A stretch of DNA of 64,000 bases, taken from the sequence record PP418987.1. One strand, written 5' to 3'. Within the stretch, counting starts at the first letter, position 1; every line of letters begins with the position of its first letter. Below are positions 1 to 50,903 of this stretch, in pieces. Source of the stretch: Escherichia phage UPWr_E4. The notes beneath the pieces are model-generated. The model ran no database searches and had not been told where the DNA came from. It saw nothing but the letters and a program-made list of their open reading frames with translations. The position numbers and the translations under genes were made by a program.

Positions 1-2669
1 GCTTGCCCCCAATTATTAGGGACACGACGAATACCAAGATCGACGGCAGTTACAAACCCTTGATTGGTGATTACACTTTTTCCTTTAATAATTGGATAAT
101 AACAATCCTGTGAAACATAACCATGATCGACGAATAATGGAGCTTCTACTCGCCATTGGTTGCCCCAATCACCCGGTTGTCTAGCAATCCATCCAGAACC
201 GTTAATGTGTACACGATCGCGGTTAACGTTAACCATTGCGATATTTTGTGGATTTAGCGAAATCTCACCATTGTTTGTGATATGTACTGCCGCCTGAGTA
301 GCATAGCTATAAAATGCTAGCGAATTATCAGCACCACCCTTACCAATATACCAGTTACCACTCCCGTCTACGTCACCACGAATATGCAAAGCATTACCAG
401 CAGTTGTTGATAATACAATAGAATCACCCGGACGTTTAATAATCAATCTACCTTCGGATTCAACTTCACCAAAGAATTTAGTTTTAATTGCACCAGTCGC
501 TAAAGTACGTTCAGTGGAAAAATGAACGCCTTTGCTGTCTTCTAACTGAATAATGTTATCGCGCGCATTATTACTATCACCCCAATGGTTAAATTTAAAA
601 TAATCTCGTGATCCTAAACGTCCGGCATCAAAAGTCATCAAGCCTTTTATATTAATATCACCACCAAAAAATGCGGTGAGAGAATCGCGTTTTAATTTTA
701 AAACGTTAGCACCACTAGTACCACCCAAAGTAACATCACCAGTTCTTAATTCATAACGGAAAGGTCTATTTGTATTAAAGTTTCCATCTTGATCATTTTC
801 GTCGGTGGAAAGAATATAAAGACTCTCTCCATCATTACGGAAAATTGTACCAAATTTTCCGCCATACATACGGAATGCATTAGATGAGCGGAATTTAACT
901 TCTGTTTTAAATGTGGTAGTGTTATTAAGGTTAACAGTAGAGTTAAAATTGGTAGGAGCACCGAAGTTAACTGCGCCATTAAAATCTTGTTGAGCTGTCC
1001 ATGTGTGGCGACCATCTTCAAGAACAACACGGCGGACTGTGCAAGTTCTATTTCCAGAATTACCGAACACACGAACGACAAAATAACGGTAGTTTGTCTG
1101 GGATACAGTACCGCGCCAAACCTGAACAGTACGCCCTGTGCTAGTGTGTTCACTAGGACCAACGGAAAACATAACCAGGTTTCCGTCAATCGTCCCCCAA
1201 TCCATATTTGCTGGCATGTTCTTTATTTTGTTCAAAGGAACGCTAAACATACTACCAGGAACAAAATCAAAGGTTTGCCAATCTAACTCCGCTAATTGAG
1301 CTTTAATACCACCCATACCCAAAGTAATTGGAAGAGAATAAATCGTCCCCCAATCCATATTTGCTGGCATGTTCTTTATTTTGTTCAAAGGAACGCTAAA
1401 CATACTACCAGGAACAAAATCAAAGGTTTGCCAATCTAACTCCGCTAATTGAGCTTTAATACCACCCATACCCAAAGTAATTGGAAGAGAATAAGATGTA
1501 TATACTTCGTTCCATGCACCCCACGCACCACCAGTATATGCACGCTCAAAAATACGATCGCGAGTAGTTGCACCCGTTCCGGCAGTAGTAAATTTTTGGA
1601 AAATAGCACCACCAGAAGCACGCTGTTTAACTTCCAGCAAACCAACAATAACAGTCGGCAAACCTTCACCGGTAGGACAGTTAATAACGGCATCAGTGCC
1701 TAAAATATTATATAACCCAGGAGTTTTAAAATCATTCAGATCTCCGTCATAGAAAGTCGCCGGTGTGACATTACCGACTTGTTGCCAAGGTCCCCATTTA
1801 GGCGCAGAAGCATCCCACGCAGCAGTAAGACAACGAGTATAAACAACACCAAATCTGGTCGTATATCTCTGTGTGCGAGAATAGTTTCCACCTTCATATA
1901 CTTCTAAAAGTCCTTGAGCGGACGATCCTTCTTCTGGGAAATTTCTGTCAAAGGTAGCAATGGAACTTGAACTATTTCGCCACAAACCAAAGTGTTCAGC
2001 GCCTCCTAGATCATTAAGATCAATTGTTGTTGACAGTGGACGAGTACCAGATTGAATATTTCGCCACACACTCCACGGACCATTTACTCCGTTCCATGTA
2101 GCAGTCAAGGAACGAATATAAACATTTCCGTATCTAGTTGTATATCTCTGAGTACCAGCAAATTGACCGGCCACAAATACTTCTAGCACACCTACAGCAT
2201 TTTCTTCTGGAAATTTATTTGCTGGTTGAGCGTTGGTTGAAGTTGCTTTCGACCAAACTCCAAGACATTCTTCAACAGGCCCATACGTATCTAAATTAGC
2301 ATCAACAGGTAATTCGCCATTATTTTTTATAAACGTTGTGCTATTGACATTTATGTCAGATGGAGTTAGCGTGATATCTTTTGACCCATCAAAGGATATA
2401 CCATTAATTTTTCGTGCTGTTTTTAATTTCGTTGCAGTTGCAGCGTTACCTGTTAAATTTCCAATTATATTTCCATTAACAGTTAAAGAACCATCAATTG
2501 TTCCTCCATATTTTAAACCTAATTCTATAACACTACCTGAGTCATCTTTTGTGAAAATTGTTTTATCTTTTAAGTTTATAGCCAATTCACCTTCGGCTAA
2601 TACTGAAGCAGCAGGACGTTGACCTGCAGTTTTGCTTCTTTTAAATTGTATTTGTTTTAAAGTAGCCAT
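1..2669 (-). CDS. 37: long tail fibre distal subunit gp37, partial (start codon at 2669, 3' end beyond window start)
   Basis: Minus-strand frame open from ATG (revcomp of 2667-2669) to position 1; N-terminus translates [30 protein letters not shown], recognised as T4 gp37; follows 34-35-36 in order. Confidence 0.9.
1188..1493. repeat. perfect tandem duplication, 2 x 153 bp (1188-1340 and 1341-1493), in frame within gene 37
   Basis: The two 153-nt units are identical at every position when read from the sequence; 153 = 51 codons. Confidence 0.95.
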
Positions 2670-2677
2670 AAGTCCTC

Positions 2678-3328
2678 TTAATAATAGCCGAAATCTTGAA
2701 CAGAATCCTTAATTACGATTTGGTCAAATCGTGGAACGTGTGAAGGTTGAGATGCAGGATTCTGTGAAAAAAGGTTTGGCGCAGTTAAATTTCCTGTCAT
2801 AGTGTCTCCAGAGCGTAATACCCTAGAGTTTGCATTTGCTGTAACAGTATTTATTGCTCCATCAACATAATCTTTACGAGTAACATCAGATGCTGCGGAA
2901 GGAGTAGATGTAACAGTTACAGATGGAGCCGTTACAGCTTTGGTAAATGTTGTCAAACCTTCTGGCGTAATCGTAATTTGTCCAGTAGTGATTTCACTAC
3001 CTGCTGGTCTAAAACTAATACCGCCAGAAGAGCCACCAACTACAAGAGTATTACCAGTGCCGCCACCAGAACGAATTCGGATAGGGGTTTCATTATTACT
3101 TAATTGAAGATAACTATTTACCCCGTAATTAATAGTAATTGGACCGGCGTAAGTACCACCATTAGCTTTAGAAACGAAATCGTTATCAGCTGCCTGCGGT
3201 TTATTATATTCTGAATATATTTTAAATGATTTGTAGAGTACATCGTCACCGGCTGAATTCAATGGAAAATTTCCTTGATGCCAAATGACAGATCCACCCA
3301 CAGTTGAACCTACTTTTAAATCAGCCAT
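2678..3328 (-). CDS. 36: long tail fibre subunit gp36
   Basis: 216 aa ORF; N-terminus MADLKVGST and C-terminus [17 protein letters not shown] recognised as T4 gp36; synteny. Confidence 0.85.
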
Positions 3329-3351
3329 TATATGCCCCTTTATTTTAATAT

Positions 3352-3359
3352 TATTTATA
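3352..3359 (-). promoter_or_regulatory. late promoter (TATAAATA) upstream of gene 36, preceded by a hairpin after gene 35
   Basis: Plus-strand tatttata = TATAAATA on minus strand, about 25 nt upstream of the gene 36 ATG. Confidence 0.55.
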
Positions 3360-3390
3360 AAGAAAAAGGGAACCCGAAGGCTCCCTCAGT

Positions 3391-4506
3391 TTAAAATTCT
3401 CTAAATTCCTGTCCAAACACTTTGCCAGTTTTAGAAGAGGCTTGTGTAGGAAGTACCATTATATCTGGAGGTGAAGCCGATTCACAGACATAATTAACGC
3501 GAATACCGTTGACGCCAAATTCGGCAGGTTTTGAAATGCCGCCATTTCTTGATACTTCAGAAAAACTTAAATTTCTCATGCCGCCTTGACCTGCTTGAGC
3601 AGTTCTTTGTGCATATATCGTAAATCCTACGGCGTTTTCTGGAACAACTACATAGTCTTCTTTTAATTCCCAAGACCCAGCTTGCCCAGTAAACTCAGCT
3701 TGGGTCGAGGAAATATATCCATTTGATGCATCATAAAAACGAATGGATATGTTTGTAGTTCCAAGATCAAGTAAATCAGCATCAGCATATAACTGTGCTT
3801 TAAGATAAAGAACATCACCAGGAATTAAATTATAGTCAGAAAGTTTACTTATAGCAGCTGAAGTTGGCAATCGCGCAATTTCGTTATTAGTTCCACCAAC
3901 TGCTGACATGAATTGCTCGACACTTTCATAAGTTCTTTTTGGAAATCCTGTCGCTCCGACGTCTTCTAAACTATCAAATACAACATCTAAAATAGTTTGA
4001 TAATCATCTGTGCTTTTTCTATTACTTAGTTTAACATGCTCTAATGCAATAGCTCTTTTAGAAGAAGTATAAAAAGCAGCATATGATACGTCAAATCTTG
4101 ACAATACTGAATCTGATGGAAAAACTGAAGTTCCTGCTCCCCTTAACCAAGATACCACTTCAGGAGGAAAATTAACCTTTCCGCTAGTTAATATAGCAAC
4201 AAGTCTATTGTTTGACAAAGAATTCATGAAACTAACAAAAGCGGCAGATGTTGTATTGTTTGAAGCAGAAAAAGCATATGACTTACTATCAACTAATGCT
4301 CCCGTAGAAGGGTCAAAAACTCTTAAATGAAGACCTGCACTAAATGTTTGATTTCCAACGGGATTATCCTGAAATTTAACATATGGCCCCGCAGTAGAAA
4401 GCGGGCAAGAACCCGCTATGCTTATTTTATATCTTACTGAATTGCTTTCCGATAAAAATGGCGTTTGGACATATCCTTGTCCAAACTCTGCCATAAATTT
4501 TTCCAT
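3391..4506 (-). CDS. 35: long tail fibre hinge connector gp35
   Basis: 371 aa ORF between 34 and 36; size and position match T4 gp35. Confidence 0.85.
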   Translation of the reverse strand: MEKFMAEFGQGYVQTPFLSESNSVRYKISIAGSCPLSTAGPYVKFQDNPVGNQTFSAGLHLRVFDPSTGALVDSKSYAFSASNNTTSAAFVSFMNSLSNNRLVAILTSGKVNFPPEVVSWLRGAGTSVFPSDSVLSRFDVSYAAFYTSSKRAIALEHVKLSNRKSTDDYQTILDVVFDSLEDVGATGFPKRTYESVEQFMSAVGGTNNEIARLPTSAAISKLSDYNLIPGDVLYLKAQLYADADLLDLGTTNISIRFYDASNGYISSTQAEFTGQAGSWELKEDYVVVPENAVGFTIYAQRTAQAGQGGMRNLSFSEVSRNGGISKPAEFGVNGIRVNYVCESASPPDIMVLPTQASSKTGKVFGQEFREF

Positions 4507-12266: not shown

Positions 12267-12296
12267 GGGGACCCTAGAGGTCCCCTTTTTTATTTT
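12267..12296 (+). terminator. rho-independent terminator after gene 32
   Basis: ggggacc-ctaga-ggtcccc hairpin followed by ttttttatttt. Confidence 0.7.
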
Positions 12297-12315
12297 AAAA
12301 ATTTTTCACAAAACT

Positions 12316-12345
12316 GTTTACATCCTTGTTCTTCCATGGTACTAT
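12316..12345 (+). promoter_or_regulatory. early promoter (GTTTACA, 17 nt spacer, TACTAT)
   Basis: Motifs read directly; immediately downstream of the gene 32 terminator. Confidence 0.5.
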
Positions 12346-22371: not shown

Positions 22372-22425
22372 GTTTACAAGTCCCTCGTGTTGTGTTATAG
22401 TAGTCTTACTGACATAACATGAGGA
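22372..22425 (+). promoter_or_regulatory. 54 bp promoter/stop/RBS cassette, copy 1 (identical to 38327-38380)
   Basis: GTTTACA, 17 nt, TATAGT, then stop codons in all three frames and a GAGGA RBS; exact second copy elsewhere in the window. Confidence 0.6.
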
Positions 22426-29335: not shown

Positions 29336-29365
29336 GGACTCCTTCGGGAGTCCTTTTTTATTTTC
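29336..29365 (+). terminator. rho-independent terminator
   Basis: ggactcc-ttcg-ggagtcc hairpin followed by ttttttatttt. Confidence 0.7.
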
Positions 29366-29383
29366 CAAAGATTGCATAAAGTT

Positions 29384-29416
29384 GTTTACAGTATGGTTCC
29401 TTTGTGATAGTATTAT
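29384..29416 (+). promoter_or_regulatory. early promoter (GTTTACA, 17 nt spacer, TAGTAT)
   Basis: Motifs read directly. Confidence 0.5.
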
Positions 29417-34159: not shown

Positions 34160-34180
34160 AGGCCTTCGGGCCTTTAATTT

Positions 34181-34188
34181 TATAAATA
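34181..34188 (+). promoter_or_regulatory. late promoter (TATAAATA) upstream of alt
   Basis: Exact TATAAATA about 20 nt upstream of the alt ATG, downstream of a hairpin. Confidence 0.5.
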
Positions 34189-34208: not shown

Positions 34209-36266
34209 ATGATGGAACTTATTACAGAATTATTTGACGAAGATACTACTCTTCCGATTACAAACTTAAATCCAAAGAAGAAAATACCGCAAATTTTTTC
34301 AGTTCATGTTGATGATGCAATTGAACAACCAGGCTTTCGTTTATGTACCTATACATCTGGAGGTGATACTAATCGCGATTTAAAGATGGGCGATAAAATG
34401 ATGCATATTGTTCCTTTTACATTAACTGCTAAAGGTTCAATTGCTAAATTAAAAGGTCTTGGTCCAAGCCCAATTAATTATATCAATTCAGTTTTTACTG
34501 TTGCGATGCAAACAATGCGTCAGTATAAAATTGATGCCTGTATGCTTCGTATTCTTAAGTCTAAAACCGCTGGTCAAGCTCGACAAATTCAAGTTATTGC
34601 TGATAGACTTATCCGTAGTCGTTCAGGTGGCAGATACGTCCTTCTTAAGGAACTCTGGGATTACGATAAAAAGTATGCATATATTCTTATACATCGCAAA
34701 AATGTATCACTAGAAGACATTCCGGGAGTTCCGGAAATTAGTACTGAGCTCTTTACTAAAGTTGAATCGAAGGTCGGTGATGTTTATATCAATAAAGATA
34801 CTGGAGCTCAAGTAACTAAAAATGAGGCAATTGCAGCATCTATTGCGCAAGAAAATGATAAACGTTCTGACCAAGCTGTAATCGTTAAAGTTAAAATTTC
34901 CCGTAGAGCAATTGCGCAAAGTCAATCATTGGAATCTTCTAGATTTGAAACGCCGATGTTTCAAAAATTTGAGGCTTCAGCAGCAGAATTAAATAAACCT
35001 GCTGACGCTCCTTTAATTTCTGACGCTAATGAATTAACTGTTATTTCTACTTCAGGATTTGCATTAGAGAATGCTCTTAGTAGTGTTACAGCTGGAATGG
35101 CATTCAGAGAAGCTTCTATAATTCCTGAAGATAAAGAATCTGATGTTAATGCAGAAATAAAAAATAAAGCTTTAGAAAGATTACGAAAAGAATCTATTAC
35201 TTCAATAAAAACTTTAGAAACTATTGCTTCTATAGTTGATGATACTTTAGAAAAATATAAAGGTGCTTGGTTAGAAAGAAACATTAACAAGCATTCGCAT
35301 TTAAATCAAGATGCTGCGAATGAGTTAGTACAAAATTCTTGGAATGCAATAAAAACAAAGATTATTCGAAGAGAATTGCGTGGATATGCTCTTACCGCTG
35401 GATGGTCACTACATCCTATAGTCGAAAATAAAGATTCATCTAAATACACACCGGCACAAAAACGCGGAATTCGTGAATACGTAAGTTCAGGATATGTAGA
35501 CATAAATAACGCTCTTTTGGGATTATATAATCCAGATGAGCGTACAAGTATTTTGACAGCATCTGATATAGAAAAAGCTATTGATAATTTAGATTCTGCC
35601 TTTAAAAATGGTGAACGATTACCAAAAGGTATTACTTTGTATCGTTCACAACGAATGTTACCTTCAATATATGAAGCACTGGTAAAAAATCGAGTTTTTT
35701 ATTTTAGAAATTTTGTGTCAACATCATTATATCCAAATATTTTTGGTACCTGGATGACTGATTCATCTGTGGGTGTTTTACCAGACGAAAAGCGTTTAAG
35801 TGTTTCTATTGATAAAACTGATGAAGGACTAGTAAATTCTAGCGATAATTTAGTTGGAATTGGATGGGTTATTACTGGGGCTGATAAAGTCAATGTTGTT
35901 TTACCAGGTGGAAGTTTAGCACCTTCAAATGAAATGGAAGTCATTTTGCCACGTGGATTAATGGTCAAAGTTAATAAAATAACCGATGCATCTTACAATG
36001 ATGGAACAGTTAAAACTAACAACAAGCTTATTCAAGCTGAAGTTATGACCACAGAAGAACTCACCGAATCGGTAATTTATGACGGTGACCGTCTAATGGA
36101 AACCGGCGAAGTAGTTACAATGACAGGTGATATTGAAATAGAAGACAGAGTTGATTTTGCATCATTTGTTTCATCAAATGTTAAACAGAAAGTAGAATCA
36201 TCTCTTGGAATTATTGCGTCTTGTATAGATATTGCAAACATGCCTTACAAGTTCGTTCAAGGATAA
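34209..36266 (+). CDS. alt: Alt ADP-ribosyltransferase (head-packaged), copy A
   Basis: About 685 aa; MELITELFDEDTTLPITNLNP...; ADP-ribosyltransferase R-S-E signature (LYRSQ, FVSTSL, EVILPRG). Confidence 0.85.
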   Translation: MMELITELFDEDTTLPITNLNPKKKIPQIFSVHVDDAIEQPGFRLCTYTSGGDTNRDLKMGDKMMHIVPFTLTAKGSIAKLKGLGPSPINYINSVFTVAMQTMRQYKIDACMLRILKSKTAGQARQIQVIADRLIRSRSGGRYVLLKELWDYDKKYAYILIHRKNVSLEDIPGVPEISTELFTKVESKVGDVYINKDTGAQVTKNEAIAASIAQENDKRSDQAVIVKVKISRRAIAQSQSLESSRFETPMFQKFEASAAELNKPADAPLISDANELTVISTSGFALENALSSVTAGMAFREASIIPEDKESDVNAEIKNKALERLRKESITSIKTLETIASIVDDTLEKYKGAWLERNINKHSHLNQDAANELVQNSWNAIKTKIIRRELRGYALTAGWSLHPIVENKDSSKYTPAQKRGIREYVSSGYVDINNALLGLYNPDERTSILTASDIEKAIDNLDSAFKNGERLPKGITLYRSQRMLPSIYEALVKNRVFYFRNFVSTSLYPNIFGTWMTDSSVGVLPDEKRLSVSIDKTDEGLVNSSDNLVGIGWVITGADKVNVVLPGGSLAPSNEMEVILPRGLMVKVNKITDASYNDGTVKTNNKLIQAEVMTTEELTESVIYDGDRLMETGEVVTMTGDIEIEDRVDFASFVSSNVKQKVESSLGIIASCIDIANMPYKFVQG

Positions 36267-36269
36267 ATC

Positions 36270-38327
36270 ATGGAACTTATTACAGAATTATTTGACGGCG
36301 CTTCGGCGCCGGTTGTTAACTTAAATCCTAAGCATAAAATACCACAAATTTTTGCTATTCAAGCCGGCGAAGAAAGCGTGCTTCCTGGATTTAGATTTTG
36401 TACATACACCTCTGGTGGTGATACGAATAAAAACGTTAAGCCAGGCGATAAAATGATGCATATCGTAATGATAGGTGTTAATGAGAAACTATCATTAGTT
36501 AAGCTTAAAAACTTGGGTGGAAATCCAATTGGTGTCATTAATGCCGTTTTTGATACTGCTCTTCAAACAATGAAACAGTATAAAATCGACGCATGCCTAT
36601 TCCGCGTACTAAAAAGTAAAACAAATGGCGCAGCTCGTCAAATGCAAGTTATTGCTGACCGTTTAGTACGTACTAAAGGAGCAGGTCGATATGTTCTTTT
36701 AAAGGAAATCTGGGACTATGATAAGAAATATGCATATATTATGGTTTACCGTAAAAATGCCAATTTAGAAGACATTCCAGGTGTACCTCCTATTTCAACT
36801 GAGTTATTCACAAAAGTTGAATCAAAGGTCGGTGATGTTTATGTAGACGTTAAAACAGGAAATGCTGTTCCTAAAGCTGTCGCTGTTGCTGCTTCTATTG
36901 CTTTAGAAAATGATAAGCGCACGGACCAAGCTGTTATTCAGAAAACTAAAATCAGTCGTCGATTAGCAGCACAAGCTCAATATTCTACTGTTGATGCTTC
37001 ACTTCAGGGTGATAGCTTTGCTGCCAAGAAATATCAAGAGTTTGAATCTAAAGTTCCGGTATATAAAGCAGAAGGACCAATGAACTCTGGCGTTATCCAG
37101 ATTGGTTCAAACTTCAGCAAAGGAGCTATCGGTGGTATGAGAAGTGCTTCTCGTTTTAAATCTAGCGATTATGAACTAGAAAGCTTCCGAAATCATATTG
37201 CATTGGCCCATGCACGTTTACGTGATCCATCTATCAAGTTGCAGAGCGATATAACATATCAAGGTTCTCAAGAATATTTAAAGAATAAAGAATTCTTTGA
37301 TTATAAAACTGATAAAATTTTAAGCGATCTTGCTGACATTAATATTTCTAATAGCTTTGATGTTATTAAGAAAATTATCAATGATTTGGTTAAAGGTTCT
37401 AAAGCCACGCCAGATGAAAAGACAGCTATTATTCAATTTGTAATGAATGGCATTTATAAATTGATTAATGAATCTGCTGCCCAGGCATATGAATACGCAA
37501 GCACCGAAGTAGCTCCAAAAGGACTGACTCAGGCTGAATCTGATGTAATTGAAGATTATTGTGCAGATTCATATGTTGAAATGAACTCGTTCCTTTTGGG
37601 TAAACCAGATTCTACCCGTGAAGAATACATGGAACGAGCTATTAAGCACATCGAGACGTTAGATTCTGCCTTTGCCAAAGGATCAGTTCTTCCTCCAGGA
37701 ACTACACTTTACCGTGGGCAAGAAGTTACCTTTAAAACTTTGCGTCATAACATTGAAAATAAAATGTTCTATTTCAAGAACTTCGTATCCACATCGCTTA
37801 AACCAAATATCTTCGGTGAGCATGGTAAAAACTATATGGCTCTAGATGATTCTGGCGCAGTATTTTCTGGCGAAGGAGAAGGTTCCGTTGATACAGAAGA
37901 TTTGATGCATATGGGTAGTCATTCTACATATGCTAATGAAGATGCTGAAACTAGCGTGGGTATGGTAATTAAAGGAGCTGAGCGAATCAAAGTTATCGTT
38001 CCAGGTCATTTATCAGGATTTCCATCAGAAGCTGAAGTTATTCTACCACGTGGAATTTTACTGAAGATTAATAAAGTAAGTACGTACTTTATGAAAGAAA
38101 CTGCTTATAACAAGTATCTAATCGAAGGTACAATCGTTCCTCCTTCTGAACAATTAGAAGAATCAGTATATGATGGAGACCATCTAATGGAAACTGGTGA
38201 AGTTCGTCCAATGGCTGGATTTAATCAATTCCTTGTAGAAGAATCAAAAGAAGAGGAAAATGAAGTTTCTCAAATCTTGGCTTCTTTGGTTAACATCAAC
38301 GGAATGTCTAAAAAGTTCAAAATGTAG
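36270..38327 (+). CDS. Alt-family ADP-ribosyltransferase paralog, copy B
   Basis: 685 aa; same N-terminus MELITELFD, roughly 60-65 percent identical to copy A over the first ~230 aa by eye, divergent middle, conserved R-S-E signature (LYRGQ, FVSTSL, EVILPRG). Confidence 0.8.
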   Translation: MELITELFDGASAPVVNLNPKHKIPQIFAIQAGEESVLPGFRFCTYTSGGDTNKNVKPGDKMMHIVMIGVNEKLSLVKLKNLGGNPIGVINAVFDTALQTMKQYKIDACLFRVLKSKTNGAARQMQVIADRLVRTKGAGRYVLLKEIWDYDKKYAYIMVYRKNANLEDIPGVPPISTELFTKVESKVGDVYVDVKTGNAVPKAVAVAASIALENDKRTDQAVIQKTKISRRLAAQAQYSTVDASLQGDSFAAKKYQEFESKVPVYKAEGPMNSGVIQIGSNFSKGAIGGMRSASRFKSSDYELESFRNHIALAHARLRDPSIKLQSDITYQGSQEYLKNKEFFDYKTDKILSDLADINISNSFDVIKKIINDLVKGSKATPDEKTAIIQFVMNGIYKLINESAAQAYEYASTEVAPKGLTQAESDVIEDYCADSYVEMNSFLLGKPDSTREEYMERAIKHIETLDSAFAKGSVLPPGTTLYRGQEVTFKTLRHNIENKMFYFKNFVSTSLKPNIFGEHGKNYMALDDSGAVFSGEGEGSVDTEDLMHMGSHSTYANEDAETSVGMVIKGAERIKVIVPGHLSGFPSEAEVILPRGILLKINKVSTYFMKETAYNKYLIEGTIVPPSEQLEESVYDGDHLMETGEVRPMAGFNQFLVEESKEEENEVSQILASLVNINGMSKKFKM

Positions 38328-38380
38328 TTTACAAGTCCCTCGTGTTGTGTTATAGTAGTCTTACTGACATAACATGAGGA
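38327..38380 (+). promoter_or_regulatory. 54 bp promoter/stop/RBS cassette, copy 2 (identical to 22372-22425)
   Basis: Exact 54/54 match to the cassette upstream of alc. Confidence 0.6.
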
Positions 38381-38387
38381 ACACAAA

Positions 38388-38678
38388 ATGAAATCTTCTT
38401 TGCGCTTTTTAGGTCAAGAACTTGTAGTTGAAGGAGTTATTCCTGCTGATAATGCTTTTAATGAAGCAGTTTACGATGAATTTATCAAAATTTTTGGAAC
38501 AGATAAAAAGTTCGGAATTTTTCCTTCTGAAAATTTTTCAAAGCCAGAACAGACTGAAAGTATTTTCCAAGGTGTAGTAACAGGTAAATTTGAGTCAGAA
38601 GCTCCGGTAAAAATTGAAGTTTATATTGAAGACAGTTTAGTTGCTTCAGTTTCTGCTTTCATTTCATTCCGTAAATAA
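38388..38678 (+). CDS. protein of unknown function (96 aa) expressed from the duplicated cassette
   Basis: ORF with GAGGA RBS 7 nt upstream; last plus-strand gene before the convergent gene 54. Confidence 0.55.
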   Translation: MKSSLRFLGQELVVEGVIPADNAFNEAVYDEFIKIFGTDKKFGIFPSENFSKPEQTESIFQGVVTGKFESEAPVKIEVYIEDSLVASVSAFISFRK

Positions 38679-38683
38679 AAATA

Positions 38684-38703
38684 TGGGGACCAAAAGGTCC
38701 CCA
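38684..38703. terminator. bidirectional hairpin between convergent transcription units
   Basis: tggggacc-aaaa-ggtcccca between the 96 aa ORF (+) and gene 54 (-). Confidence 0.55.
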
Positions 38704-38706
38704 TTG

Positions 38707-39672
38707 TTATATTGCTCCTAATATTTTACTCTGCGAATTGACAATTCCTGTCATAGTATTAATATTTGAAATGCTTCCTGCAGTTCCCCCTAATCTACTA
38801 AGTCGTGAAAGCGAATTAGATAGTCCAGTAACACCTCCACTATTTCCTAGAACGCTTTGAATACCATTTATAGTAGCAGATTCAAGCCATTCAAGGGCAG
38901 CTTGTCTATCAACTGCTCCAGCCTGCATCACTCTATACGCAAAAGTAACATCAAATGTAGTTATTTGGTTATCTCCATCATATGATAACTCAGGAGCGCT
39001 TACGGACACTGGAATGCATCCAGTGAACATCACCGCAGTATGTGGTAATCCATTGCGAGAATGAAGATTAACCTGAATATCTGCCTCGACATCTTGCGGC
39101 AAAGCACGCAATCCAGTTACTGGGTCTTGAACAGCGTTAACCCAGTCTTGCATTGCACGATAGTTACAAGCTTCTGAATCCATTCTGAATGAAATAACCA
39201 AAGGGTCTAATTCTCTCCCAGTTATACGAATATTAGGAGAATTATAGTTCCAGTCAGTTTCATAGGATAATCTATTCTCTGGCATTTTTACAGAGTATAT
39301 CATCAATCCAGATGAGTTATATGCCACGTTAAAGAAGTCAATTAAATATGTACCAACTGTAAATGAGCCTAATAAACTTTGAACTGTACGTTGACTCATG
39401 GCACCAATAAGATATTTACTAACCCCTGATTTTCTTATCAGTTTTTGTGTGCCAGCTGTAATTAGCGTAGTAATTCCCTGATTAATATCGCCTTGAGTTA
39501 ATCCTAACCAATCTGAATTTAGGCCCAAGTTATTATAAGAAAAGTTGCTAATTGAACTTATCAACGAAGAGCTTTTAGTTGATGGAGTTGTAGCAAAAAC
39601 ACAGCTGAACATATTATTACGTTGGAAATCTGCGTTTATTGCTTGATTATTAAATTCCTCTAAAGAATACAT
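38707..39672 (-). CDS. 54: baseplate tail tube initiator gp54
   Basis: 321 aa; size and position as T4 gp54. Confidence 0.85.
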   Translation of the reverse strand: MYSLEEFNNQAINADFQRNNMFSCVFATTPSTKSSSLISSISNFSYNNLGLNSDWLGLTQGDINQGITTLITAGTQKLIRKSGVSKYLIGAMSQRTVQSLLGSFTVGTYLIDFFNVAYNSSGLMIYSVKMPENRLSYETDWNYNSPNIRITGRELDPLVISFRMDSEACNYRAMQDWVNAVQDPVTGLRALPQDVEADIQVNLHSRNGLPHTAVMFTGCIPVSVSAPELSYDGDNQITTFDVTFAYRVMQAGAVDRQAALEWLESATINGIQSVLGNSGGVTGLSNSLSRLSRLGGTAGSISNINTMTGIVNSQSKILGAI

Positions 39673-49484: not shown

Positions 49485-50903
49485 ATGACTTTTACAGTTG
49501 ATATAACTCCTAAAACACCGACAGGGGTTATTGATGAAACTAAGCAGTTTACTGCTACACCCAGTGGTGAAACTGGAGGCGGAACTATTACATATGCTTG
49601 GACTGTAGATGATGCTCCACAAGATGGAGCTGAAGCAACTTTTGATTATGTATTAAAAGGACCTGCTGGACAAAAGACTATTAAAGTAGTTGCAACAAAT
49701 ACAGTTCCAGATACTGATGCTGAAACAGCAGAAGCTACTACAACTATCACAGTTCAAAATAAGACACAAACAACTACTTTAGCTGTAACTCCTGGTAGCC
49801 CTGATGCTGGAGTGATTGGAACTCCAATTGAATTTACCGCTGCCTTAGCTTCACAGCCATCAGGTGCAAACGCTACGTATCAATGGCACGTTGACGGTTC
49901 TCCTGTAGACGAAGCAACTGACGCTACATTCAATTACACTCCTGACACAAGCGGAGTTAAAAAAATCAAGTGTGTAGCTCAAGTAACTGCGGCAGATTAT
50001 GATGCACTAAGCGTTACTTCTAATGAAGTATCATTGACTGTTAATAAAAAGACGCAGACGACTACCTTGGCAGTAACTCCTGATAGTCCTCCAGCTGGAG
50101 TGATTGGAACAGCCGTTGAATTTACTGCTGCCTTAGCTTCTCAACCTGATGGGGCATCTGCTACGTATCAGTGGTATGTAGATGATTCACAAGTTGGTGG
50201 AGAAACTAACTCTACATTTAGCTATACTCCAACTACAAGTGGAGTAAAAAGAATTAAATGCGTAGCCCAAGTAACTGCTGAAAATTACAATGAAAAGGAA
50301 GTTACTTCTAATGAAGTATCATTGACAGTTAATAAGAAGACAATGAATCCACAGGTTACATTGACTCCTCCTTCTATTAATGTTCAGCAAGATGCTTCGG
50401 CTACATTTACGGCTAATGTTACGGGTGCTCCAGAAGAAGCACAAATTACTTACTCATGGAAGAAAGATTCTTCTCCTGTAGAAGGGTCAACTAACGTATA
50501 TACTGTCGATACCTCATCTGTTGGAAGTCAAACTATTGAAGTTACTGCTGTCGTTACTGCAACTGATTACGATAGCAAAACTATTACAGCAGAAGGTCAA
50601 GTTCAGGTAACTGATAAAGTTGCTCCAGAACCAGAAGGTGAATTGCCTTATGTTCATCCTCTTCCACATCGTACTTCAGCTTATATCTGGTGCGGTTGGT
50701 GGGTTATGGATGAAATCCAAAAAATGACCGAAGAAGGTAAAGATTGGAAAACTGAAGATCCAGACAGTAAATACTACCTGCATCGTTACACTCTTCAGAA
50801 GATGATGAAAGACTATCCAGAAGTTGATGTTCAAGAATCACGCAATGGATACATCATTCATAAAACTGCTTTAGAAACTGGTATCATCTATACCTATCCA
50901 TAA
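49485..50903 (+). CDS. hoc: Hoc, outer capsid decoration protein with Ig-like domains (472 aa)
   Basis: MTFTVDITPKTPTGVIDETKQF..., tandem Ig-like modules and conserved capsid-binding C-terminus ...YIWCGWWVMDEIQKM.... Confidence 0.85.
   Translation: MTFTVDITPKTPTGVIDETKQFTATPSGETGGGTITYAWTVDDAPQDGAEATFDYVLKGPAGQKTIKVVATNTVPDTDAETAEATTTITVQNKTQTTTLAVTPGSPDAGVIGTPIEFTAALASQPSGANATYQWHVDGSPVDEATDATFNYTPDTSGVKKIKCVAQVTAADYDALSVTSNEVSLTVNKKTQTTTLAVTPDSPPAGVIGTAVEFTAALASQPDGASATYQWYVDDSQVGGETNSTFSYTPTTSGVKRIKCVAQVTAENYNEKEVTSNEVSLTVNKKTMNPQVTLTPPSINVQQDASATFTANVTGAPEEAQITYSWKKDSSPVEGSTNVYTVDTSSVGSQTIEVTAVVTATDYDSKTITAEGQVQVTDKVAPEPEGELPYVHPLPHRTSAYIWCGWWVMDEIQKMTEEGKDWKTEDPDSKYYLHRYTLQKMMKDYPEVDVQESRNGYIIHKTALETGIIYTYP
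49770..50342 (+). repeat. tandem diverged repeat (2 x about 288 bp) encoding two closely related Ig-like domains of Hoc
   Basis: TTTLAVTPGSPDAGVIGTPIEFTAALASQP... versus TTTLAVTPDSPPAGVIGTAVEFTAALASQP..., about 75 percent amino acid identity by eye. Confidence 0.6.

Follow-up and report, generated by a model that had tools for sequence, protein, structure and literature searches.

The alt.-3 gene of the T4-like Escherichia phage UPWr_E4 and a predicted early-only translational gate in its leader

In bacteriophage T4 the genes e, soc, 49 and I-TevI share a regulatory design in which the Shine-Dalgarno (SD) sequence is locked in a helix of a long RNA and an internal promoter gives rise to a short, translatable RNA (review PMC3014915). 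The internal promoter of these genes is a late one, and it is the early RNA that is silenced. The present analysis deals with a 64,000-nucleotide (nt) stretch of DNA from Escherichia phage UPWr_E4 (record PP418987.1; hereafter the window) and, within it, with an open reading frame (ORF) of 96 amino acids (aa) at 38388..38678 on the plus strand, the counterpart of T4 alt.-3, together with the promoter cassette that it shares with the gene alc.

In T4, time-resolved omics data place alt.-3 and alc in the early RNA and early protein classes, and alt in the middle RNA and late protein classes (PMC9697503 supplements). Deletion of T4 alt.-3 gives viable phage (PMC11618068), and its knock-down with dCas13d (CRISPRi-ART) was scored -0.72 (p = 0.80, 'Not Fit'), that is, no fitness effect (PMC11879866 supplement). 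In the literature searched, full-text mentions of alt.-3 are confined to Vassallo et al. 2024 (PMC11618068) and its preprint, and DUF5498, the Pfam family of its product, is not mentioned by any paper.

The explanation favored here, with moderate confidence, has three parts: the window gene is the ortholog of T4 alt.-3, its leader is an alc-derived element predicted to permit translation only early in infection, and its product would be a protein that binds a host target.

Identity and conservation of alt.-3

The ORF starts with ATG, 7 nt downstream of the motif GAGGA, and agrees in position and translation with a preliminary description of the region that had been made from the sequence alone. 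Its product matches Pfam DUF5498 (PF17602) from end to end (residues 1-96 on profile positions 1-96, E = 5e-64, 213.2 bits against a cut-off of 27) and is also assigned to phrog_1739; NCBIfam gave no match for the protein, and an Rfam search of 38200-38800 found nothing near gathering scores. T4 Alt.-3 (NP_049808, UniProt P39493; T4 122742-123032) likewise has 96 aa and is 99% identical, the single change being residue 90 (serine in the window, alanine in T4). The two phages also have in common the site of the gene between alt and gene 54, the promoter cassette, the A-rich context of the stop codon and the gene order lig-alt.1-alt-alt.-3, which converges on 54-48-29. The window gene is the ortholog of T4 alt.-3, a genuine, conserved and dispensable early gene of T-even phages. 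The gene is therefore not the orphan it had been called: the profile search that the preliminary description proposed returns DUF5498 along its whole length, and homologs occur in 836 phage records. Other parts of that description stand. The gene follows the second of two 685-aa ADPrib_exo_Tox proteins and is the last plus-strand early gene before the convergent gene 54, its product has no recognizable domain of known function, and expression, the absence of which had been named beforehand as a refuting outcome, is documented for the T4 ortholog (99% identical), which is classed as early at both the RNA and the protein level (PMC9697503 supplement). The gene is thus already known, and any role of its wild-type product is putative.

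The window belongs to the genus Tequatrovirus. The region is 100% identical to that of phage vB_EcoM-101112UKE3-1, and in most of the other T4-like genomes that match (499 records in total) the identity is 95-99%. Identity of the homologs retrieved by tblastn with Alt.-3 is 92% or more in Tequatrovirus, 56-58% in Dhakavirus, ~52% in Mosigvirus, 48% in Marfavirus, 40-45% in Kanagawa-/Karamvirus-like Enterobacter phages, 37% in Gelderlandvirus and 34% in Kagamiyamavirus; in Jiaodavirus a 92-aa protein at the equivalent position is a divergent member of the family (hhalign probability 95%). Position was inspected in eight genera (Tequatro-, Dhaka-, Mosig-, Marfa-, Gelderland-, Kagamiyama-, Kanagawa- and Jiaodavirus), and the order ligase, alt.1, alt, alt.-3 followed by convergent 54-48-29 is kept in all of them, which answers the question of conservation at the alt-54 junction raised in the preliminary description. 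An exhaustive HMMER scan of 1.84 billion representative proteins yielded just 15 relatives, and the source names in the 90%-identity cluster are all 'hypothetical' or 'phage protein'.

The hosts of the phages that carry the family are Escherichia, Shigella, Salmonella, Klebsiella, Enterobacter, Yersinia and Citrobacter, all of them Enterobacterales, and the gene is missing from the alt-bearing Acinetobacter, Aeromonas and Krischvirus phages examined. Such host restriction is the pattern that would be expected of a factor with a host-specific target. Three candidate relationships were rejected: ORF182 of Krischvirus Phi1, found at the equivalent position, is not homologous to Alt.-3; paralogy with gene 30.5, for which a 34-nt repeat (family D14) had hinted at a common N-terminus, has an hhalign probability of 0.2%; and descent of Alt.-3 from a piece of Alt has one of 0.15%.

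Within Tequatrovirus the ratio of nonsynonymous to synonymous substitutions (dN/dS) of alt.-3 is 0.04-0.09, indicating strong purifying selection, and the protein is 99% identical in phages whose Alt is only ~71% identical to that of the window. These values speak against the notion of a recombination-prone junction as far as alt.-3 is concerned; what varies there between phages is the copy number of alt. Eleven residues (M1, R6, E11, F24, P46, F50, G66, E71, F91, F94, R95) are invariant across genera, the terminal ones among them (M1, R6, E11, F91, F94, R95) in 19 sequences from at least eight genera. The length of the protein and its exact C-terminal end, F-x-x-F-R-K, are preserved across genera down to ~35% identity, and the window protein carries the family motifs of both ends, MKS..R..G.E (N-terminal) and F..FRK (C-terminal). 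That the ORF is itself functionless, a mere spacer or transcription-unit end between alt and gene 54, would agree with the lack of a phenotype upon deletion or knock-down in laboratory E. coli, but it is extremely improbable in view of the dN/dS, of the conserved length, invariant residues and termini, of the detection of the T4 protein during infection and of its confidently predicted fold; judged by its pattern of conservation, this alternative may be considered effectively refuted.

Two annotated starts depart from the family. The IME08 gene is annotated as 106 aa (locus 3471-3791), and one metagenomic protein likewise starts 10 codons 5' of the conserved MKS; these upstream starts fall inside the promoter and are thus probably over-extended.

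A predicted gate in the leader of alt.-3 and alc

As the preliminary description stated, alt.-3 has its own copy of the promoter and ribosome-binding cassette that also drives alc. The two copies are identical in 54/54 nt (repeat family D5; zero such matches expected by chance), and the ORF directly behind the first copy, which sits after the RNA ligase 1 gene (rnlA), matches Pfam ALC (E = 2.7e-90). The first base of the second copy is the G of the alt stop codon TAG. The promoter, TTTACA-17-TATAGT with a TG extension, matches 10 of 12 consensus positions and is of the early type. Both copies are present in T4 with a single mismatch, which lies in the alt.-3 copy, and T4 retains the final bases of the second alt paralog together with the cassette. 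The 54-mer occurs in 448 phage records, many of which have it at two places.

The cassette is predicted to fold in RNA into a hairpin of -23 kcal/mol at alt.-3 (z = -4.7; none of 200 shuffles as stable) and -24.4 kcal/mol at alc, with the promoter spacer in the 5' arm and the SD sequence in the 3' arm (Table 1). The predicted transcription start lies inside this hairpin, so RNA from the gene's own promoter would lack the 5' arm and the hairpin would form only in RNA started upstream; the RNA from the predicted start has no significant structure. Opening the segment from the SD sequence to the AUG is calculated to cost 17.6 kcal/mol in read-through alt.-3 RNA against 2.2 kcal/mol in own-start RNA, and 18.5 against 3.5 kcal/mol at alc. 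Seven sites in the window combine an early promoter with an ORF, and alc and alt.-3 are the only ones at which the two forms differ by more than 1.4 kcal/mol.

On this basis the leader of alc and alt.-3 is predicted to be an early-only translational gate, in which a strong early sigma-70-type promoter is set inside a hairpin that it supplies with its own spacer. RNA from the internal promoter, free of the 5' arm, would be translatable, whereas read-through RNA from the late-transcribed alt would carry both arms and be translationally silent; as an outcome, Alt.-3 would be produced only in the first minutes of infection. Upstream of alt lies a late-promoter motif, TATAAATA, which is the likely source of late RNA reading through into alt.-3, and no terminator was found between alt and alt.-3. 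The late alt mRNA should therefore cross alt.-3 with the ribosome site closed, which fits the early-only class of the Alt.-3 protein in T4.

None of the stem variants found in Tequatrovirus breaks a pair (G·U to A-U, C-G to U·G, U·G to U-A), and the remaining changes lie in the loop or improve the -10; with three G·U pairs, the structure would be one of the sense RNA only. Dhaka-, Gelderland-, Karam-, Jiaoda- and Winklervirus have alc leaders that differ in sequence and share the design, the bases after the -35 pairing with the SD sequence in stems of 9-18 pairs. In the alc stem, 9 of 13 pairs have changed on both sides and 89.7% of cells are paired, a result reached by none of 500 shuffles; the covariation score is 0.65 and falls to 0.21 or less when the partner is slid by 1-3 columns. 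For this count the stem arms were taken by hand, by position, with the register set from the -35 and SD anchors (for T4, from the fold). MAFFT plus RNAalifold on the raw alc leaders had predicted no pairs, the 3' arms being misaligned, hence the use of position-extracted arms. By the count on these arms, the SD-sequestering helix at alc has been maintained during evolution by compensatory changes.

The hairpin might instead be an element of RNA processing or stability (an RNase III-type site or a 3' stabilizer of the upstream mRNA) or a device that couples translation to the upstream gene. Its long stem, 18 bp in total, directly follows the stop codons of alt and rnlA, and other genera have in the spacer of the alt.-3 promoter a different, short hairpin that does not occlude the ribosome site, both of which would suit such a role. 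This alternative is nevertheless considered improbable, though not negligible. The part of the alc hairpin that is conserved and covaries in six genera is the part that pairs with the SD sequence, this hairpin encloses both the -10 and the start site in every case, and the geometry matches that established for T4 e, soc, 49 and I-TevI (PMC3014915). There is no U-tract behind the stem, which therefore is not an intrinsic terminator, and the SD-pairing nucleotides lie 11-14 nt beyond the stop codon, probably out of reach of a terminating ribosome.

With the early-only gate still preferred, several points have to be set against it. The transcription start is deduced from the -10 only, the folding energies are in silico values, and RNase processing or the helicase action of ribosomes ending at the alt stop codon could alter the outcome. 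Extraction of the stem arms by hand favors hairpin structure somewhat. Moreover, occlusion of alt.-3 is weak in other genera, with a difference of 1-4 kcal/mol in five of them and none (-2.0) in Jiaodavirus. Strong occlusion of alt.-3 is thus not universal, so early-only translation is no defining need of the family. Kanagawavirus is an exception, its spacer pairing with the start-codon region (difference 12.5 kcal/mol).

The alc-type long hairpin occurs at alt.-3 in Tequatrovirus only, while other genera keep the alt.-3 promoter, with GTTTACA overlapping the alt stop codon. By this distribution the long hairpin is ancestral to alc. Its presence at alt.-3 most probably goes back to a duplication or gene conversion in the Tequatrovirus lineage, which would explain the 54/54 identity. 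The SD-sequestering stem is not present at the alc gene of Mosigvirus. Recurrent conversion between the alc and alt.-3 leaders outside Tequatrovirus is not supported, as their similarity within a genus (0.76-0.79) barely exceeds the promoter background (0.56-0.81).

Leaders in other genera offer some further observations. In six genera the alt.-3 promoter has, in the interval from its -35 to its -10, a short hairpin with compensated changes (CCACAT/ATGTGG, ACATCC/GGATGT, TATCAC/GTGATA), which would lie in the 3' end of the alt mRNA, 30-60 nt upstream of alt.-3. The alc leader of Mosigvirus LF82-35 (locus 140-205) has a short spacer hairpin, ACACC..GGTGT, like those of alt.-3 promoters (compare positions 3442-3500 of a separate locus, L005); in this genus the alc and alt.-3 leaders are 79% alike and may represent a second leader exchange. 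In Kanagawavirus IME523 (locus 3426-3515) the alt.-3 spacer GAAUGAACGUGUU is paired to the AUG and the codons that follow it (-30 kcal/mol), with opening costs of 15.1 kcal/mol for read-through RNA and 2.6 kcal/mol for own-start RNA; this leader seems to have solved the same problem independently. In most Dhakavirus records (e.g., NC_014260) the alt.-3 leader matches at a second place as well, which differs from the alc leader and, in IME08, falls outside 126-146 kb.

Proposed role of the Alt.-3 protein

Alt.-3 is a small, mildly acidic alpha/beta protein. An AlphaFold2 model built on a shallow alignment (predicted local distance difference test score 91.6, predicted template modeling score 0.79) consists of strand, strand, helix, strand, helix, strand and strand. 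A search of BFVD with this model returned only uncharacterized orthologs of T4-like phages (template modeling score up to 0.92), and the family profile found nothing below E = 0.67 among PDB sequences, hence no solved relative. It is proposed that Alt.-3 would act stoichiometrically by binding a target specific to enterobacterial hosts, and that this binding would serve host take-over or counter a strain-specific defence. Part of the functional surface is probably formed by the N-terminal hairpin, which is conserved, and by the invariant F-x-x-F-R-K at the C-terminus. A host-interaction or anti-defence role is plausible, being consistent with early timing and dispensability. Against it counts that the case for a binding protein draws on size, timing, dispensability and host distribution only.

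The protein is probably neither an enzyme nor an obligatory partner of Alt. A dedicated partner of this ADP-ribosyltransferase, be it as an immunity-like inhibitor, as a specificity factor or as a chaperone, would have parallels in the small genes beside toxin ADP-ribosyltransferases. In all genera with alt.-3 the gene lies directly 3' of alt, and its promoter has a -35 that overlaps the alt stop codon. Strict co-occurrence or co-expression with the transferase was, however, not found: Alt is present without Alt.-3 in three lineages (Lazarusvirus, Tulanevirus, Krischvirus), it occurs in 1219 records against 836 for Alt.-3, and the timing of the two T4 proteins is uncoupled, one being early and the other late. 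In addition, the window leader is predicted to block translation from the alt mRNA, Alt.-3 stays nearly unchanged where Alt diverges, no sequence relation exists between the two proteins, and alt.-3 is intact in Salmonella phage Melville, whose alt is frameshifted, and in T4, which retains only a remnant of the neighboring paralog. A partnership with Alt is accordingly rated as quite unlikely. The alt gene of Melville (locus 1333-3440) is split by a frameshift which the depositors confirmed through resequencing.

T4 escapers of the CmdTAC defence system had Alt.-3 lengthened to 110 or 117 aa in 5/5 evolved populations; the lengthened protein blocks ClpP-dependent degradation of the antitoxin CmdA, even without phage (Vassallo et al. 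2024, PMC11618068). Wild-type Alt.-3, on the other hand, neither triggers nor inhibits CmdTAC and leaves CmdA unstabilized, and deletion of alt.-3 does not change the defence (PMC11618068). A role of the wild-type protein as a CmdTAC anti-defence factor was consequently rejected, as only the 110- and 117-aa C-terminal extensions inhibit (PMC11618068). Reconstruction of the T4 changes showed that one A added in CGTAAATAAAAAT gives a protein of exactly 110 aa with the tail IKIWTFRSPLLYCS, and that a 117-aa protein ending in KNMDLSVPIVILLLIFYSAN results when the stop codon loses its T; both selected tails are hydrophobic, unrelated in sequence and read in different frames. Single-base changes are presumably frequent in the A-rich run at the stop codon. 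Given this run and the unrelated tails, we read the escape as a gain of function of a generic kind, acquired by an early protein that is abundant and stable, with little bearing on the wild-type role. In the window the terminator stem behind the gene is 2 nt longer than that of T4, and frameshifts would therefore not yield the tails selected there: the equivalent slips would lead to a 110-aa protein with a different tail or to a 157-aa protein.

The same escape mutations could be taken to mean that host ClpXP-dependent proteolysis is what wild-type Alt.-3 acts on, whether as substrate, as adaptor or as modulator. It would then be understandable how small C-terminal extensions make the protein an inhibitor of CmdA degradation. 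In favor of this are the extended forms reached by all of the escape populations and the protection of CmdA from ClpP by such a form without phage; nearly all homologs end at F-R-K, which suggests that the free end matters. The conserved N-terminus S-L-R-F is similar to an N-terminal recognition motif of ClpX, which serves as a lead only. Set against this are the inertness of the wild-type protein toward CmdA and the unchanged defence upon deletion, while the unrelated hydrophobic tails from different frames fit a generic sticky-tail effect and the A-rich run could by itself account for the repeated hits. An action on ClpXP is regarded as unlikely.

Binding to a target specific to enterobacterial hosts continues to be preferred. 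A more far-reaching version, in which Alt.-3 would be the founding member of a structurally new T-even early family that binds a component of enterobacterial proteolysis or toxin-antitoxin immunity and, jointly, the alc/alt.-3 leader would be an early-only gate not described before and passed from gene to gene by conversion, seems rather doubtful. If it held, the conversion of Alt.-3 into a CmdTAC inhibitor by one frameshift would mean that the fold is a ready-made anti-defence scaffold.

Surrounding features and comparison with known phage systems

The features of the locus are collected in Table 1. On the opposite strand downstream of alt.-3 are the counterparts of the T4 baseplate genes 54, 48 and 29, separated from it by a GC-rich hairpin of 9 bp.

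Table 1. Coordinates of alt.-3, of its leader and of associated features in the window
Feature	Position	Strand	Remarks
Cassette copy 1, upstream of alc	22372..22425	+	Identical to copy 2, same hairpin
alc, 168 aa	22430..22936	+	Other cassette-driven gene; Pfam ALC; T4 start annotated one codon later
Terminator-like hairpin AAGGCCTTCGGGCCTT, then late-promoter motif TATAAATA (34181-34188)	34160..34188	+	20 nt before alt; terminator annotated likewise in JB75
alt paralog 1, 685 aa ADP-ribosyltransferase	34209..36266	+	ADPrib_exo_Tox domain
alt paralog 2, 685 aa	36270..38327	+	ADPrib_exo_Tox domain; intact here, degenerate in T4, which keeps only the remnants alt.-1 and alt.-2
Cassette copy 2, upstream of alt.-3	38327..38380	+	-35 TTTACA 38328-38333, -10 TATAGT 38351-38356, SD GAGGA 38376-38380
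Predicted RNA hairpin	38335..38382	+	14-bp stem plus 4-bp apical stem; promoter spacer CCUCGUGUUGUGUU pairs with GACAUAACAUGAGG, sequestering the SD sequence
Predicted early transcript start	38363..38363	+	7 nt after the -10, from which it is deduced
alt.-3 coding sequence, 96 aa plus stop	38388..38678	+	Ortholog of T4 alt.-3; Pfam DUF5498, phrog_1739
CGTAAATAAAAAT, stop codon of alt.-3 within an A-rich run (A3-T-A5)	38670..38682	+	Site of the single-base changes behind the extended Alt.-3 of T4 escapers from CmdTAC
Bidirectional terminator-like hairpin ATGGGGACCAAAAGGTCCCCAT	38683..38704	.	Gap between alt.-3 and gene 54; annotated terminator in related phages
Gene 54 (baseplate tail-tube initiator)	38707..39672	-	Convergent neighbor; corresponds to T4 gene 54

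Two other repeats of the window lie in regions apart from this locus. An ORF of 472 aa at 49485-50903 (+) is made up of Ig-like repeats and contains a tandem 288-nt duplication at 49749-50324 (75% identity, D1); it may be a Hoc-type head decoration protein with one domain more than that of T4. At 1188-1493 there are two tandem 153-nt copies (100% identical, D3) which no complete ORF of 80 aa or more covers together, so this duplication probably lies within a long gene that runs off the start of the window.

In a wider context, alt.-3 is one of many conserved T4 early genes of unassigned function. As Alt.-3 can become a counter-defence factor by a one-step mutation, knowledge of its wild-type target would help to understand the conflict between phage and host. 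More tangible is what the leader adds on regulation, namely the known T4 principle of hiding the ribosome site with its timing reversed. If true, the gate would explain why Alc, and Alt.-3 in T4-like phages, are confined to the first minutes of infection, in the case of Alt.-3 in spite of a position downstream of late-transcribed genes.

As a protein, Alt.-3 can be compared with the small early phage proteins that neutralize host factors, such as PinA, Arn and Dmd of T4. Like them it is small, early, dispensable in laboratory hosts and limited to phages of related hosts; unlike them it is inert in its wild-type form on CmdTAC, the sole defence tested, and it has no sequence or fold similarity to any of the three.

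The cassette is akin to the PeSL cassettes (PMC2839356, PMC4122927), with which it shares a short repeated unit consisting of an early promoter (TTTACW-N17-TAYWAT), a stem-loop, an SD sequence and a start codon, as well as its occurrence at more than one place in the genome; PeSLs are exchangeable by recombination. A PeSL has its stem-loop immediately before the promoter, where it is interpreted as a terminator (PMC4122927), whereas the stem of the alc/alt.-3 cassette starts after the -35 and spans the -10, the start site and the SD sequence. The two copies in the window, moreover, are ~16 kb apart and flank essential genes, so that they cannot serve as a cassette for excision. A 62-nt repeat elsewhere in the window (12284-12345 and 29352-29413, 71% identity, D6), with a T-rich run, GTTTACA and a -10-like TA(C/G)TAT, looks like a terminator-promoter unit of the PeSL type.

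In its design the leader matches T4 e, soc, 49 and I-TevI. In the literature searched, neither alc nor alt.-3 was found named as an example of such hairpins, although an older description of the alc leader is possible. At alc and alt.-3 the SD sequence lies in a stable helix, as judged in silico, and the promoter lies inside that helix, as judged by the predicted start; the internal promoter, however, is an early one. The leader is accordingly predicted to be a new instance of a known T4 regulatory principle in which the timing is reversed: in e, soc, 49 and I-TevI a late internal promoter frees a gene whose early RNA is silenced, whereas at alc and alt.-3 an early internal promoter would give the translatable RNA and later read-through would be silenced.

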